A DNA stretch of 64,000 nt from an uncultured virus (IMG/VR IMGVR_UViG_3300029705_005139) (Duplodnaviria > Heunggongvirae > Uroviricota > Caudoviricetes): the IMG/VR virus record IMGVR_UViG_3300029705_005139; one strand, written 5' to 3'. Shown here piece by piece: positions 7,475-49,482 of this stretch. The position numbers and the translations under genes are program-made. Numbering within the stretch: position 1 is the stretch's first letter; each line of letters begins with the position of its first letter. The notes under the pieces are model-generated. The model saw only the letters and a program-made list of their open reading frames with translations, ran no database searches and was not told the DNA's origin.

Positions 7475-7507
7475 AATACCCGGTATCCAATACAGATACC
7501 GGGTATT
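7475..7507. terminator. Hairpin downstream of the integrase
   Basis: AATACCCGGTATC / GATACCGGGTATT inverted repeat. Confidence 0.7.
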
Positions 7508-7575
7508 ATTTCTGGGATTAGACAGTGTTTTGGCGAAATTCCTTTTCTAATAAAATACTGGGGTGTTACTGGTTA

Positions 7576-7758
7576 TTATGGGGTGCATTCATGGTCCTTT
7601 GGCGTAGGCACAGGAAACGGTAATTTACCTGTAGCCGCCACATAATTATACATCCATATGACCGCATCCTCAACAGCAAGCCCATGTCTGCCAAGGACTT
7701 CTTTTGCCTGCTCATAAACCTCCACTGGGAGAGTGAATTCTACCATTGCATCAGACAA
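7576..7758 (-). CDS. RelB/DinJ-like antitoxin (RHH)
   Basis: VYEQAKEVLGRHGLAVEDAV..MY..VAATGKLPF resembles the DinJ/RelB pattern. Confidence 0.6.
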   Translation of the reverse strand: MSDAMVEFTLPVEVYEQAKEVLGRHGLAVEDAVIWMYNYVAATGKLPFPVPTPKDHECTP

Positions 7759-8289
7759 CTATGATATCTCCTCATTTAATTCAATATATCGTTTCATGCT
7801 CATAACCACATATTTGGGATCGCAGTCTTCACAAATAAACAGCGTACTATCAGTTCTATCAATGTGCGCCAGACAAGCATCGAAATAGAGCAGAAAATCA
7901 TTTTTCTCGATAGCCTGCCGAGGCTTCCCCGAGCTATCGTTGGCTAGATCGGTAAGAGGAAGTGCACCTGTAGTAGCATGGGTAACATTGTTCAGCAGAA
8001 AATCATACAATGCCCCCACCTCTGTCAAGTCAGCCTGTACATGCTCACCGTTCTCTTCCCATTCTACGATTTTGGGTACATCCTCATATAGCCACCAGCT
8101 AATCCAATCATTTTGGTCTCCAGTGGTCGCCTGTAGAACCTTCAGCAAAGCATTTCGGTGCAGGCTATCCATATCCAAGTTTACCGGGAAATCACCAAGT
8201 TTCCGCAATGGTATCCGCAGTTCCTCCATGATATCATTATGCTTTTGGATGGCTCCTATGGCCTCAACAAACAGCTTCTTTGACAGCAT
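7759..8289 (-). CDS. Hypothetical protein with Phd/YefM-like C-terminal domain
   Basis: C-terminus DFLLYFDACLAHID...LFI....PKYVVMSMKRYIEL. Confidence 0.5.
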   Translation of the reverse strand: MLSKKLFVEAIGAIQKHNDIMEELRIPLRKLGDFPVNLDMDSLHRNALLKVLQATTGDQNDWISWWLYEDVPKIVEWEENGEHVQADLTEVGALYDFLLNNVTHATTGALPLTDLANDSSGKPRQAIEKNDFLLYFDACLAHIDRTDSTLFICEDCDPKYVVMSMKRYIELNEEIS

Positions 8290-8350
8290 AAGTATTCCCT
8301 CTATTTGCTTGTAGAGAAATTTTATTCCTCATGGAAATAGTATCCGCTAA

Positions 8351-9040
8351 TTATCCATGAAAGTATCTCTGTAATTCAGATGCCCATCCCAGCTTATCAC
8401 AATGCCACTGCCAGTCTTGGAGGCACCAATGGCAATGCCCAACAACATCGCAACCTCCATCATCGCTGTCCTCCGCACGCATGATTGTCAGTAGATTTTT
8501 ACATTCCGGGCAATCTTGACGATCAATAAAAAGCAGATCAATATCCACATCCCACCGTTCTGGAGCAAATTCCCTGGGATGTGCCTGCTGCAGCCACTCC
8601 TTTTTCTTCCGTACTTCCTCAATAAACGGCTTGATATCAATGCCGGAATATTTTCGTGCCCCTCGCAGCATTGTAATTATTTCATTGCCCCAAACCCGTT
8701 CATCGTAGCCGGAATATCGATCCAAACGAAACCTCTCCCCCGGTTTATCCTCTACAATTTTGCCGCCATAGGAAATTAACAGACAATCGTCTTTCAGAAA
8801 GTGGTTAAATACAAGATTGGGCAGATAGATCATATCTGTGATTCCCTTGGCAGACATATAGCCAAACCTTTTATAGTACCGCCCGTACAAATACCACTCT
8901 GGCAAGTCTTCCGGTTTAATTTTGGTGCGATAACAACCGGAGAACAGTGTACCATCCTCATTTTTCACATAACAAAGGTATCCATCCACGCGCTTGATAT
9001 CCTCTAATGTATAGACCCTTTTCTTTAACCTCTTCTTCAC
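8351..9040 (-). CDS. Hypothetical protein with C-terminal zinc ribbon
   Basis: 229 aa, RBS GAGGAAGG; CPEC...CHWC. Confidence 0.65.
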   Translation of the reverse strand: MKKRLKKRVYTLEDIKRVDGYLCYVKNEDGTLFSGCYRTKIKPEDLPEWYLYGRYYKRFGYMSAKGITDMIYLPNLVFNHFLKDDCLLISYGGKIVEDKPGERFRLDRYSGYDERVWGNEIITMLRGARKYSGIDIKPFIEEVRKKKEWLQQAHPREFAPERWDVDIDLLFIDRQDCPECKNLLTIMRAEDSDDGGCDVVGHCHWCLQDWQWHCDKLGWASELQRYFHG

Positions 9041-45185: not shown

Positions 45186-46922
45186 TTATGTGCCGTCAGA
45201 TTGTGTATTGAACACAATACCGGCCAGCACAAAGAATACGCAGGGCAAAGCCACACCGTTGCCCCACATCTTGTACTCAGCGGCATCCGAATGAGGATCT
45301 CGCAACCATTTGGTGATCTGCCGGATGGACTTAGCCTTGGAGGAGGTACCCGTAACCTTCCGGTGGGTTTCAAAGACATCGTACCAGAAACGAATATCGT
45401 CCATAGTCGGATCGTCCGTGCCAAGGCCGGCACACCACCAGTCCGGGAATCCCTGCAGTCTGGCGCACTCTGTGGGAGTAAGTCTCCGGACGGAATAATT
45501 GGGATCATTACCGTCATTGATGAGTGGCGGGTCCTTGTAGTCCGTGGCAACCAGCGTGTTTGCAGCCTCCTGCACCACATTCAAAAAGAATGTGGATTTG
45601 CTGGCACTGTAGGTTGGTGCGGCCACCGCACCGGGGCCTTTCGATACCAGCGTAGGCTGCAGTTCTTCTTCCACGGCGATATTGTACTTTGCGTTTTTTC
45701 CCTGATTGAAAGCGGCTCTGTCAATGCCGTAGGAAACCACCGCGATACCGCCCTGGTGGCAGATAGGATTTCCACCGTTGCCATCGATGGTACGGGTTAC
45801 CTTCGCTTCGTAAAATCCCACATTGGGATTGTCGGATTTCATGCCCCGGCTATCCATGGAACAGATACCGAATGCTTTCGGCAGATTATCGTTCTCCCGG
45901 ATCACAAACGGCTGATTGTTTCCTCCGGTGCCATAAGTGGCGGCCACGGTAGGTGCAACTTCCAGGGGACCCACATACCGGGTGTCCTGACTGTGATTTT
46001 CATAAACCATTGCCGGTGTATCCAGAATCACCGGAGGATGGTGTGCTTCTGCCCGGAGTGTGCAGGTAACCTCATGGGTCACATCCATACGGTTGCCTCC
46101 TTGGTCATTCAAAACGACACCGTTTCTTCCGGTAGACATTCCACAATTCACACCAAGGGTAGCCGCGACAGGAGAAACGGTGCCGTTGTATCCGTCTATG
46201 CCAAGGACTGTCGTTCCAGCGCAAGTCTCAACACCTCCGGAAGTTCTTTGCCACGCGCGGAAGCCCTCCGCAGAATACCGCGACAGGCCTTCGGACTCAA
46301 ATAATACTTTTCCGGCACATTGACCTGTAAGGTCGCCGACAAGGAAGATGCGTTTTCTGCGTTGGGCCAGGCCCCAATATTGCGCGTCAAGAGTTCTGTA
46401 CGCAACGCTCCATCCGTCTCCCATGTAAACATCGGACTGGGGCCATTTGTTTTTCTCAGGCATAGGCACTGGGGGACAATCCTGGACGATGCCGATGACC
46501 GCGTTGAGGACTGCCTGGAAGTCCCGTCCGGCATTCGAAGAGAATGCGCCGGGGACATTTTCCCAACAGATCCATCGTGGGTATTTGCCATTGGTGGCAC
46601 ACCTCATTTCTTTTATGATTCGGATGGCTTCAAAAAACAGACTGGACTGTTTTCCGTCAAGGCCTTCCCGGCGACCGGCCACAGAAAGATTGGTGCAGGG
46701 TGACCCGAAGGTAATAATGTCCACCGGCTCGATCCTGCCGCCATCCATGGCAGTGATGTCGCCGTAATGTTTCATGAAAGGCAGTCGCCTGGTAGTGACC
46801 CGAATGGGAAACGGTTCGATTTCCGATGCCCACACAGGAGTGATTCCGGAGAGAAGGCCTGCCAAAGGAAATCCCCCGGAGCCGTCAAAGAGGCTTCCGA
46901 GGGTCAGTTTTGTATTACTCAT
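45186..46922 (-). CDS. DNA (cytosine-5) methyltransferase, multi-TRD
   Basis: SLFDGSGG, GSPC, ENVPG, QRRKR, RRLTPTECARLQGFP, YKMWGNGV. Confidence 0.95.
   Translation of the reverse strand: MSNTKLTLGSLFDGSGGFPLAGLLSGITPVWASEIEPFPIRVTTRRLPFMKHYGDITAMDGGRIEPVDIITFGSPCTNLSVAGRREGLDGKQSSLFFEAIRIIKEMRCATNGKYPRWICWENVPGAFSSNAGRDFQAVLNAVIGIVQDCPPVPMPEKNKWPQSDVYMGDGWSVAYRTLDAQYWGLAQRRKRIFLVGDLTGQCAGKVLFESEGLSRYSAEGFRAWQRTSGGVETCAGTTVLGIDGYNGTVSPVAATLGVNCGMSTGRNGVVLNDQGGNRMDVTHEVTCTLRAEAHHPPVILDTPAMVYENHSQDTRYVGPLEVAPTVAATYGTGGNNQPFVIRENDNLPKAFGICSMDSRGMKSDNPNVGFYEAKVTRTIDGNGGNPICHQGGIAVVSYGIDRAAFNQGKNAKYNIAVEEELQPTLVSKGPGAVAAPTYSASKSTFFLNVVQEAANTLVATDYKDPPLINDGNDPNYSVRRLTPTECARLQGFPDWWCAGLGTDDPTMDDIRFWYDVFETHRKVTGTSSKAKSIRQITKWLRDPHSDAAEYKMWGNGVALPCVFFVLAGIVFNTQSDGT
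46196..46591 (-). CDS. Nested out-of-frame ORF, putative beta subunit of the C5 methyltransferase
   Basis: GAGGTG RBS 8 nt before ATG 46591; SSLSATLQ..VPEKYYLSPKACRGILRRA..RGKELP..L..AL. Confidence 0.7.
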   Translation of the reverse strand: MANTHDGSVGKMSPAHSLRMPDGTSRQSSTRSSASSRIVPQCLCLRKTNGPSPMFTWETDGALRTELLTRNIGAWPNAENASSLSATLQVNVPEKYYLSPKACRGILRRASARGKELPEVLRLALERQSLA

Positions 46923-48159
46923 TGGTATCCTCCAGTGCTGTAATCTCAGCATAGGAAAAGGATACACCGTCCCGCTGCACGGTCACACCGGCATCACTGC
47001 CTACCTGCTCGATGTACCGCTTTACGATAACATCGCAGAATTTTTCGTCCAGTTCGATGGTATAGCAAATGCGGTCGGTCTGCTCACAGGCAATCAGGGT
47101 GGAGCCGGAACCGCCGAAGGGGTCCAGTACCAGACAGTTGGTCATGGAAGAATTCATGATGGGGTATGCCAACAGCGGAATGGGTTTCATGGTAGGATGG
47201 TCACCATTTTTCCTGGGTTTATCGAATTCCCAGATGGTGGTTTCCTTCCGACCTGTGTACCACTGATGCTTTCCGTTTTTCTTCCAACCATACAGACAAG
47301 GCTCATGCTGCCACTGATAGGGCGACCGGCCCAGCACCAGAGACTGTTTTTTCCAGATACAGCACCCGGACAAATAGAATCCCGCATCGACAAATGCCCT
47401 GCGGAAATTCAGACCCTCAGTGTCTGCGTGGAACACATAGATAGATGCGTCATCCGCCATGGCAGAATGCATCTGGGTGTAGGCATCCAGCAGGAACTGA
47501 TAGAAGGCATCGTTGGCCATATTGTCATTTTTAATCTTACCGGCAGAACCTTCGTAATTGACATTGTAGGGAGGGTCGGTAATGACCAGGTTGACCTTCT
47601 TGCCATCGAGCAGCTGCTCGTAGGTTTCCGCTTTGGTGCTGTCACCGCAGATCAGACGGTGCCGCCCCAGGGTCCAGATGTCTCCGGATTTCGTAATAGT
47701 TGGCTTTTCCAGTTCCGCATCCACATCAAAGTCATCTTCCTTGACACCATCCTTGAGGGTGTCTTTGAAAAGATCATCGATTTCCGCAGGGTCAAAGCCC
47801 GTGAGGGAAACATCGAAATCGGCACCCTGCAGGTCAGCGATCAGCAGAGACAGCTTGTCCTTATCCCAGTCGCCGCTGATCTTGTTCAGCGCCACATTCA
47901 GTGCCTTTTCCTTTTCCTCAGACAGATCCACCACGACACAGTCCACCTGGGAATGTCCCATATCAATCAGCACCTTCAGCCGCTGGTGACCACCCACAAC
48001 CCTGCCGGTTGCCTTGTTCCAGATGACCGGCTCCACATAACCGAACTGTTCAATGGAGCGTTTCAGCTTTTCGTATTCCAGATCACCGGGTTTCAGATCC
48101 TTACGGGGATTGTAGTCAGCAGGCAGAAGATCTGCCGTATTTTTCTTTTCAATTACCAT
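46915..48159 (-). CDS. ParB-domain N4/N6 DNA methyltransferase
   Basis: YNPR..GGHQR (ParB); TDPPY, HPTMKP, LDPFGGSGST. Confidence 0.93.
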   Translation of the reverse strand: MVIEKKNTADLLPADYNPRKDLKPGDLEYEKLKRSIEQFGYVEPVIWNKATGRVVGGHQRLKVLIDMGHSQVDCVVVDLSEEKEKALNVALNKISGDWDKDKLSLLIADLQGADFDVSLTGFDPAEIDDLFKDTLKDGVKEDDFDVDAELEKPTITKSGDIWTLGRHRLICGDSTKAETYEQLLDGKKVNLVITDPPYNVNYEGSAGKIKNDNMANDAFYQFLLDAYTQMHSAMADDASIYVFHADTEGLNFRRAFVDAGFYLSGCCIWKKQSLVLGRSPYQWQHEPCLYGWKKNGKHQWYTGRKETTIWEFDKPRKNGDHPTMKPIPLLAYPIMNSSMTNCLVLDPFGGSGSTLIACEQTDRICYTIELDEKFCDVIVKRYIEQVGSDAGVTVQRDGVSFSYAEITALEDTNE

Positions 48160-48938
48160 ACCAGACCCCACTCAGCGAACTTCTCAAATCCACCGATAGA
48201 ATGGATGAAGCCCCTCGCCGTTTCTACGATTTCTTCGTAGGGAATACCGTCGATGAATTCATCACCGATGGCGCAGCTCAGTTCCACAGGCTGTCCGGTT
48301 TCCTGGGCCTTGAGAAACGCATAGATATTGACACTGACATCTGCTTTGCTGAGGTCCTTACCGTGGAGACCACCGCCGGTAACGGAATCACCCATATCGC
48401 TGCCCAGCTTTCGGTTGGTAGCACCGGTGTCCACATCCGTGCCGCCGGTCCAGGCACCCAGGGGATTGATTTCCGCAAAGGGATATGTTTTGCGGATTGC
48501 CTCTGCCTCTGCGTTGCTCTGACAGATAACAAGCCGGTTTCCGTCCATGATGTACTTACCATCATAGGGATACCGGCTGTAAATATCGTAGGCGAAGCTG
48601 CACAGCATATGCTGCTCCCGGGTCATGGGCATACCCTTGAAGATGCCGTTGTCGCCGCAGCGGACGGTTTCTTCCTGATTGCGGGCCAGATGCCTGTCCT
48701 GAGGAACGATAACCACATTGGGACGGACATTGCCGGCAATGCGATGAATGGCATCCTTGATTTTCCGCAGATTCAAAACGGCGGAGGTTTCGATGATGGC
48801 ATGGCAAACACCATGACCGATCAGCACCTCCACGGCGATTTTGGGATCGATTTGGGTTTCGTAGGCGATGTCCACGATAGCACCGGCAATACGGTCTGCC
48901 AGCTTATCAGGATGCGCCGGGTTTACTTTTTCAAACAT
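48153..48938 (-). CDS. Compact S-adenosylmethionine synthetase homologue
   Basis: HPDKLADRIA, GDNG, INP.G...GG...DTG.T.RK, GGG..GKD.SK.D.S; only 261 aa. Confidence 0.85.
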   Translation of the reverse strand: MFEKVNPAHPDKLADRIAGAIVDIAYETQIDPKIAVEVLIGHGVCHAIIETSAVLNLRKIKDAIHRIAGNVRPNVVIVPQDRHLARNQEETVRCGDNGIFKGMPMTREQHMLCSFAYDIYSRYPYDGKYIMDGNRLVICQSNAEAEAIRKTYPFAEINPLGAWTGGTDVDTGATNRKLGSDMGDSVTGGGLHGKDLSKADVSVNIYAFLKAQETGQPVELSCAIGDEFIDGIPYEEIVETARGFIHSIGGFEKFAEWGLVW

Positions 48939-48942
48939 GAAA

Positions 48943-49482
48943 TCATCCTTTCCTTGCACGGAGCAGCCGCTCCATGACATCATCTTCGGGACTGGCCCCA
49001 GTGTAATCGCCGGTACAGTTCTCCCGGACGATCTGGAAAATCTCAGACCACAGTCGGTTTGCCTGGGTCATGTACTGATTGGCAATGGAAACATAGGGAG
49101 ACTGGATCGCTGCCCCGGTAGTGGGATGCTTTGCTAGGAAACCAACTTCACTGGTAATGGACTCACACTGAATCCATCTTGCACTGGCCAGAGCATACCG
49201 TTCAATCAGGTCCGGAGAGACGATGGCGGCACACCCACGGTCACGCAGCCATTTCCACACATTTTCATAAATCTCTGCAGCACAGAGCGTGGAGCCGTCT
49301 TTCTGTCTGGCAGAAAGGAACTCCTTGGGTTGGGGCATATCCTGACCTTCCAGGTCAGCCACGCTGTCTTTGAAATCAATGACAGTCAGCGGACGCTTGC
49401 CGGGATTGCCGTCCGTAATTTTATCTGCGATGGCTTTTTTCGGTCTGCCACCGGAGCCGGGTTTGGGTCCTCTTTGGCCCAT
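48943..49482 (-). CDS. Terminase small subunit (P27 family)
   Basis: GGRPKK, GNPGKR, RW.Q.E...GF...HPTTG....SPY. Confidence 0.9.
   Translation of the reverse strand: MGQRGPKPGSGGRPKKAIADKITDGNPGKRPLTVIDFKDSVADLEGQDMPQPKEFLSARQKDGSTLCAAEIYENVWKWLRDRGCAAIVSPDLIERYALASARWIQCESITSEVGFLAKHPTTGAAIQSPYVSIANQYMTQANRLWSEIFQIVRENCTGDYTGASPEDDVMERLLRARKG

Follow-up and report, generated by a model that had tools for sequence, protein, structure and literature searches.

We examined a window of 64,000 nucleotides, the whole stretch of DNA analysed here, from an uncultured virus of the Caudoviricetes (IMG/VR record IMGVR_UViG_3300029705_005139). On its minus strand lies a gene for a C5 DNA cytosine methyltransferase, and inside that gene, on the same strand and in the +1 frame, lies a second open reading frame (ORF) of 131 codons. 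We found that this nested ORF is not a chance ORF. The features of the locus that matter for what follows are listed here, with frame 0 denoting the frame of the methyltransferase and TRD a target-recognition domain.

45186..46922, minus strand: host gene, encoding the C5 DNA cytosine methyltransferase; frame 0, 578 codons plus stop, start ATG 46922
Amino acids (aa) 1-195 of the host enzyme, minus strand: motifs I-VIII; TRD-like modules come next
aa 479-494 of the host enzyme, minus strand: motif IX (RRLTPTECARLQGFPD), from the translation and the M.HhaI alignment
aa 554-560 of the host enzyme, minus strand: motif X (GNGVALP), from the translation
46604..46615, minus strand: two +1-frame stops, TAA 46615-46613 and TGA 46606-46604, which shut the nested frame just 5' of its ATG
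46600..46605, minus strand: Shine-Dalgarno-like GAGGTG, separated by 8 nt (46599-46592) from the nested ATG; frame 0 codons E-M-R-C
46196..46591, minus strand: nested ORF in the +1 frame of the methyltransferase; ATG 46591-46589, 131 codons, stop TAG 46198-46196
46346..46588, minus strand: nested N-terminal part, about 82 codons that overprint enzyme motifs VI-VIII; stop-free, with a weakly constrained amino acid sequence
46199..46345, minus strand: nested C-terminal tail, residues 83-131, with LS..L, KYYLS and KAC.GILRRA..RGKELP..L..ALE; conserved

The open frame around the methyltransferase spans 45186..46967 on the minus strand, and 578 aa are counted from ATG 46922. The C5 family is marked by motifs I (FxGxGG), IV (PC), VI (ENV), VIII (QxRxR), IX and X within one frame. 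The host enzyme belongs to this family: frame 0 reads FDGSGG, GSPC, ENV, QRRKR, RRLTPTECARLQGFPD and GNGVALP, and the protein matches PF00145 (E 1.4e-37, Pfam). It also matches M.HhaI (E 4.5e-13), in an alignment that takes in motifs I-VI, VIII and IX. No match to the host enzyme was found in the nearest virus record (G001).

The nested ORF had been proposed in a first-pass annotation of the window, which described a 131-codon ORF on the same strand with GAGGTG 8 nt before ATG 46591; our coordinates agree with that description in every detail. When a GTG is taken as the start, the nested frame gives an ORF of 134 aa (46196..46600, minus strand). The tail reported there also reappears in our nested translation, which ends in SLSATLQ..VPEKYYLSPKACRGILRRA..RGKELP..LRLAL. 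Opposite this tail the enzyme frame reads ..RIFLVGDLTGQCAGKVLFESEGLSRYSAEG.. (GDLTGQCAGKVLFESEGLSRYSAEG), without KYYLS, so that the annotation was right to say that the main frame lacks the KYYLS segment after motif VIII, and its statement that the main ORF retains motifs IX and X holds at aa 479-494 and aa 554-560. Motif IX is absent from the nested product and is carried by the main frame.

The arrangement is widespread. With the last 49 nested residues as a tblastn query against phage records, we obtained matches in 146 records, and in all nine that were checked the tail is +1 to the annotated methyltransferase start (offset 1 mod 3). These nine comprise three gut Bacillota or Streptococcus phages, a Roseobacter, a Pseudomonas and a Vibrio phage, the dmt gene of P1, Mycobacterium phage Dove and Lactococcus phage D7138; their hosts belong to three phyla, the Bacillota, the Proteobacteria (P1 dmt included) and the Actinobacteria. 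A profile built from six tails (A1) and scanned against viral contigs and genome contigs found at least 576 relatives in the former and at least 575 in the latter. We then assembled a set of 166 loci, consisting of the window, five phage loci and 80 loci from each contig scan. In 139 of these the tail is +1 to both the N- and C-terminal enzyme halves, and in another 24 it is +1 to the sole detectable half, leaving three exceptions to the frame relation (L045, L057 and L082); at none of the 166 loci is the tail in frame with both halves. The position of the nested gene is likewise constant across phyla, always in the same methyltransferase family and after motif VIII.

Some individual records deserve mention in this connection. 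In Mycobacterium phage Dove (L167, 1963-3081) the enzyme frame is split into two coding sequences (CDS), genes 107 and 108, and the nested +1 ORF is open for 159 codons. The methylase of phage Schatzie (match H92) carries the annotation 'coding region not determined; unable ...', perhaps because of competing frames. The archaeal Methanobacterium virus Drs3 (H117) matches a nested product of the type found in phage MM1 (47% identity over 82%, E 4e-22), and the Drs3 feature beneath this match is annotated as a hypothetical protein.

The alternative frame is open in homologues, as the first-pass annotation had claimed. Among the 161 loci in which the tail is +1 to a detected N-terminal enzyme half, 155 have 78 or more open +1 codons 5' of the tail, and the open frame always ends at the same stop pair; the remaining six are cut by the end of the contig rather than by a stop, because they start 20-36 codons 5' of the tail. 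We compared the number of +1 stops with the number expected under synonymous shuffling of each gene's codons, using the 137 loci with an intact enzyme frame (the other 24 of the 161 were excluded for an interrupted frame, an N-terminal match starting after residue 10, or ambiguous bases). Across the 82 codons before the tail there were 0 stops against 180.0 expected, all 137 loci being stop-free, and within the tail there were 0 against 92.1 expected. The flanks, unlike the nested ORF, behave as expected for +1 stops, with 843 observed against 725.9 expected upstream and 1842 against 1930 downstream. The test was repeated with 42 representatives of the 137 loci that share less than 80% nucleotide identity, and gave 0 stops against 57.0 expected before the tail, 0 against 33.2 in the tail, 261 against 232.7 in the upstream flank and 548 against 580.1 in the downstream flank.

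The same avoidance is apparent in single genes. For all seven distant genes inspected (GC 0.39-0.62), the longest +1 open run of the gene is the nested ORF, at 135-165 codons, and this stretch remained open in only 0-52 of 1000 synonymous shuffles: in none for Vibrio phage PS10B.1, Lactococcus phage D7138 and MM1, in one for Javan105 and in three for P1 dmt. Given the wide host range and the spread of GC content, synonymous sites have therefore turned over.

To compare the constraint on the two frames, we codon-aligned 45 representatives. Host-frame synonymous codon identity is 0.32-0.47 over enzyme residues 1-100, 0.36-0.66 over residues 101-190, 0.82-0.91 over residues 191-240, where the tail lies, and 0.32-0.48 on the 3' side of the nested stop; over the nested N-terminal part (46346..46588) it is 0.44-0.66, against 0.32-0.47 upstream. 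Amino acid identity across enzyme residues 201-230 is higher in the nested frame (0.77/0.86/0.74) than in frame 0 (0.64/0.57/0.43). Outside the tail the lowest per-site identity falls on the third codon position of the enzyme (0.36-0.48), and in the tail it falls on the first position of the frame-0 codons (0.598 versus 0.804 and 0.819), the third position of the nested codons. The nested-frame identity and this switch in periodicity therefore identify the tail as coding sequence in the nested frame. Purifying selection acts on the nested frame; over the tail the enzyme frame is mostly just held open, with selection there mainly on the +1 frame, and the roughly 80 codons 5' of the tail are held open and barely constrained as protein.

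In principle, a +1 frame could be conserved without being translated, if the nucleotides themselves are constrained, for instance by a DNA site or an RNA structure, or if the enzyme frame is strongly conserved. It speaks for such an explanation that 5' of the tail the conserved nested residues are those forced by invariant enzyme motifs. In the tail, however, the nested frame is better conserved than the enzyme frame, and the peak of variation at nested codon position 3 is a coding signature; moreover, the avoidance of stops spans at least 131 codons and hosts with a GC content of 0.39-0.62. We therefore regard this explanation as very improbable.

One short stretch of the enzyme stands out in the same alignment. 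In residues 197-213 (46283-46334, minus strand), which overlap the KYYLS codons, D197, A203, L207, F208 and E211 are invariant in 35 sequences, and these residues are modelled with a predicted local distance difference test score (pLDDT) of about 86-93. This segment may be functional in both frames.

The start signals of the nested ORF are conserved. An ATG occupies the nested-start alignment column in 39 of the 45 representatives, and GAGGT, GAGG or GGAGG precedes the first nested ATG in 38 of the 45. The first nested ATG lies 78-90 codons 5' of the tail in 139 of the 161 loci. The '*KK*G' boundary that results from the upstream +1 stops is also present in homologues. Distant groups likewise have a Shine-Dalgarno-like motif and an ATG, the motif being AAGGAG in the Roseobacter phage and D7138 and AAAGGAG in MM1, and GGAG occurs before the ATG in the Pseudomonas phage and before the second ATG in P1. 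Nested codon 12 of the window is a second in-frame ATG (46556-46558, minus strand), which coincides with codons of the enzyme's invariant ENV motif (GAA AAT GT). Roughly twelve loci without the usual ATG have this one as their first, 69-71 codons before the tail. The nested ORF is very probably translated from its own start.

Alternatively, there might be no separate gene: +1 ribosomal frameshifting near motif VIII could give an isoform of about 240 residues made of the N-terminal domain and the tail. Proteins that resemble this isoform do exist. The tail is present in 162 proteins longer than 230 aa, among 230 candidates, and most of these are PF00145 proteins of about 240 residues that end in the tail and are found in public protein sets. 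We found, however, that the frame junction differs in each of the eight such proteins inspected, the junctions being scattered from aa ~108 to ~190 with no common shift site, and from their sequences these proteins look like sporadic indels or assembly errors rather than products of a shift site. We rejected the frameshift idea because of this scatter. Frameshifting near motif VIII would also leave unexplained both the 82 stop-free upstream codons and the conserved ATG and Shine-Dalgarno motif directly after two +1 stops, and no slippery motif was seen at the boundary when it was read from the window sequence. We consider this possibility quite improbable, and retain separate translation of the nested gene as the preferred reading.

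The proteins longer than 230 aa also include longer fusions. None of eight inspected among the 162 has both enzyme halves in frame, as an in-frame ancestor would. In seven (P0144, P0160, P0164, P0187, P0189, P0190 and P0194; 393-674 aa), the nested start and the tail are in frame with the half that holds the TRD, motif IX and motif X, and in P0148 the tail is joined to the C-terminal half and the protein begins further downstream. P0164 and the matches of the same length (567 aa), P0165, P0166 and P0180, sit on contigs of up to 161 kb. Judged by their sequences, the seven start-tail fusions may represent a true two-gene split with overlapping genes, or may be indel artefacts. The fusion forms place the tail beside the recognition domain in one chain.

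We turned to structure prediction for the relationship between the two products. Modelled alone, the host enzyme has a mean pLDDT of 61.1 and is confident at aa 1-213 and 479-578 only; with a pLDDT below 50 at aa 214-352 and 372-478, this lone model is silent on any structural gap. For the complex, we paired nested residues 76-131 (alignment A2) with the full-length enzyme (alignment A3) and modelled them in three runs, with three controls. The model has an ipSAE of 0.71 (runs 0.71, 0.65 and 0.74), and the best of the three controls scored 0.00; the partner has a pLDDT of at least 72, and the runs share at least 24% of contacts. The ipSAE mark is reached by 116 of 157 solved complexes and by 2 of 215 mismatched pairs, counts that are only rough here because we used our own alignments. 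Two regions of the enzyme are contacted in the model:

45456..45503, minus strand: predicted docking site of the nested KYYLS strand; enzyme residues 474-489, comprising motif IX together with the strand that precedes it
45732..45884, minus strand: second predicted contact surface; enzyme residues 347-397, in the last TRD-like module

The contacts with the least expected error join enzyme residues 478-482 and 484-485 to nested residues 87-98. Within them, Y96-Y97-L98 of the nested KYYLS pairs with V478-T482 of the enzyme, in the strand that precedes motif IX, and the partners of nested residues 87-93 are enzyme residues 482-489; further contacts are made with residues 184 and 186, in the motif VIII loop. 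The complex model thus supports binding of the tail to the host enzyme next to motif IX. In the predicted fold of a natural fusion form, P0144 (mean pLDDT 52.6), the tail has a pLDDT of 78-96 and forms helices at 82-88, 98-110 and 117-128. Nested residues 1-82 fall below 50 in that fold, which suggests that the nested N-terminal stretch is probably disordered.

Altogether, we propose the following mechanism. Ribosomes would initiate at ATG 46591, just after the internal GAGGTG, and would first read the roughly 80 codons that overprint motifs of the catalytic domain, which are open, almost free to vary and probably disordered as protein. The conserved tail of about 49 residues, predicted to form a short KYYLS strand and two helices, would be read last and would bind the full-length enzyme beside motif IX and the last target-recognition module. 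There, a separate chain would provide what single-chain C5 methyltransferases have within the polypeptide directly behind motif VIII, a segment that is absent from this enzyme's own frame. What we observed is the ORF with its frame and its conservation, the avoidance of stops, selection that acts on the nested frame, and start signals that are conserved; from these and the model we infer that the product is translated, binds the enzyme and has a role in methylation. In sum, we think it probable, from the sequences and the complex model, that the nested gene is translated separately and that its product is a small partner chain of the methyltransferase.

A product that is translated and selected need not complete the enzyme. 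It could instead be a regulator of the expression or activity of the methylase, or a factor in phage-host conflict. Evidence of coding says nothing of function, the main chain has all ten motifs, and the tail has no detectable family in the Pfam and PDB searches, all of which would suit such a role. Against it, the complex model docks the tail onto motif IX and the last TRD module of the enzyme in whose gene it lies, with the controls scoring 0.00; the nested gene travels with one methyltransferase family across phyla at a constant site after motif VIII; and rare natural forms join the nested product in frame to the half with the TRD, motif IX and motif X. On balance this alternative seems unlikely to us, although it is the strongest of the three that we weighed.

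Several points also weigh against a partner chain as we propose it. The main chain could be active alone, because it retains all ten motifs. In the literature searched, no member of the family has been shown directly to be translated, to bind or to function. The nested-start ATG is missing from the usual column in 6 of the 45 representatives, the shuffle statistics overstate independence because the loci are mutually related, and the complex score is the model's own confidence and no measurement. The nested product matches no Pfam family at E <= 1, and in the PDB phmmer finds antibody light chains alone, at E >= 0.45; a PDB search with the profile of six tails gave 0 matches at E <= 10, and a fold search of P0144 against 48,161 chains gave a best Z of 4.0, to generic helical hairpins, with no methyltransferase listed. 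The first-pass annotation had likened the tail to the L-x-D-I-L..KYYLS segment of single-chain enzymes. Its position after motif VIII and the complex model agree with this likeness; the identification of the tail as the canonical post-motif-VIII segment rests on inspection and the model, because the Pfam, PDB and fold searches gave it no statistical support.

A broader possibility, which we hold more tentatively than the partner chain itself, is that a phylum-spanning class of phage C5 methyltransferases consists of obligate two-chain enzymes. Their second chain would then be the product of an overprinted gene of ancient origin, a detached piece made of a strand and helices, and would complete the DNA-recognition domain next to motif IX. 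The class would in that case cover phages of gut Bacillota, Vibrio, Pseudomonas and Roseobacter, mycobacteriophages and the Dmt protein of P1, and here too our confidence falls somewhat short of that in a partner chain for the window. Because it would have a separate start codon, the second chain could control the amount of active enzyme.

Phages use such methyltransferases to evade restriction, and gene callers discard long same-strand overlapping genes. To our knowledge, bacteria and their viruses have few long overlaps between genes on one strand for which selection has been demonstrated; the nested gene described here is selected in more than 1000 public loci (at least 576 viral and at least 575 genomic stretches). 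If the small chain is needed, clones that express the annotated protein alone may mislead, predictions of phage methylomes must include the second chain, and the pair is a natural split methyltransferase and a possible tool, as M.EcoHK31I has been. The interest of the system lies in its breadth across hosts and in its testability in P1 and E. coli with routine methods.

The neighbours of the C5 gene are also concerned with methylation. On its 5' side lies a gene with ParB_N and N6_N4 DNA methylase domains (PF01555, E 6.6e-25; 46915-48171, minus strand), whose stop and the C5 start share 8 nt (ATGAGTAA), followed by a short S-adenosylmethionine (SAM) synthetase-like gene (48153-48983, minus strand) that matches only the N-terminal domain PF00438 (E 8.9e-09). 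The N6/N4 methylase, SAM synthetase-like and C5 genes together make up a phage module for methylation that brings its own supply of SAM.

Two known systems bear comparison with the nested gene. The first is M.EcoHK31I, which the first-pass annotation had cited as a heterodimer with its beta chain in an alternative frame of the alpha gene. The published description (PMC2836561) agrees: the beta chain is encoded wholly in another frame inside the alpha gene, it carries motif IX, its first 42 residues are dispensable, and internal start codons are used. The window is alike in having a small chain wholly inside the gene of the large chain and in another frame, and in having a nested product whose N-terminus looks dispensable, as in beta. 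It differs in that the beta chain of M.EcoHK31I supplies a motif IX that alpha lacks, whereas the main chain of the window keeps its motif IX; the segment supplied by the nested chain would differ from that supplied by beta for this reason. It differs also in that the activity of both chains has been shown for M.EcoHK31I, whereas the pair in the window is known from sequence and a binding model. The first-pass suggestion that the window shares the overprinted design of M.EcoHK31I is supported for the layout, with the reservation that the nested chain has no motif IX and would supply a different segment.

The second, and closer, comparison is with the Streptococcus pneumoniae phages MM1 and MM1-1998. 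In MM1 (AJ302074.2), ORF14 (7631-8056, 'putative methyltransferase') lies inside ORF13 (7480-8637, 'putative DNA methylase') at an offset of 7631-7480 = 151, that is, +1, the same as in the window; in MM1-1998 (DQ113772.1), orf13 and orf14 are named 'C5 methyltransferase alpha subunit' and 'beta subunit'. As in the window, the nested gene of these phages is a +1 ORF of about 140 codons that starts in the N-terminal domain and ends shortly after motif VIII, and both products have LS.IL and then (K/R)Y(Y/F)LS near the C-terminus. Differences are also evident. The tail of the window product is about 25 residues longer (KAC.GILRRA..RGKELP..L..ALE), and the enzyme whose gene surrounds it is larger and has several TRD-like modules. 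The two nested products are 29% identical over 94 residues (E 7e-06, BLASTP), an identity that is partly forced because the overlapping host frames are homologous, and the match of the window product to phrog_16143, the family that MM1 ORF14 matches at E 5.3e-82, is weak (E 0.0072, 38 residues). The nested ORFs of Lactococcus phage D7138 and MM1 also match a further family, phrog_1008, though weakly, and the long fusion forms have no match to it. By its sequence, we place the window product as a distant member of the MM1 orf14-type group.

How such genes are annotated varies. In Streptococcus thermophilus phage P0091 (NC_070690.1, locus L172), the nested gp40 lies inside gp39, both being called 'DNA methyltransferase', and the nested CDS occupies 1201-1620 within 1050-1913; of the 40 rows listed for the MM1-type search, 4 have two features beneath the match. 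P0091 and records like it belong to the MM1-type subgroup, whereas the window subgroup has no second CDS among the matches listed. The P1 dmt locus (L166, AF234172.1, 2144-2629) is bare as well, with a +1 ORF open for 163 codons and no CDS annotated for it in an otherwise dense record, so that the first-pass annotation was justified in saying that these genes are usually missed. Our literature search, which did not extend to the MM1 genome papers, found no paper describing or testing any such nested gene. The nested gene is not new, as the homologous pair is already labelled alpha and beta in DQ113772.1. Most records leave such homologues unannotated; the window gene is a mostly unannotated relative of a kind that has been noticed in a few phage annotations.

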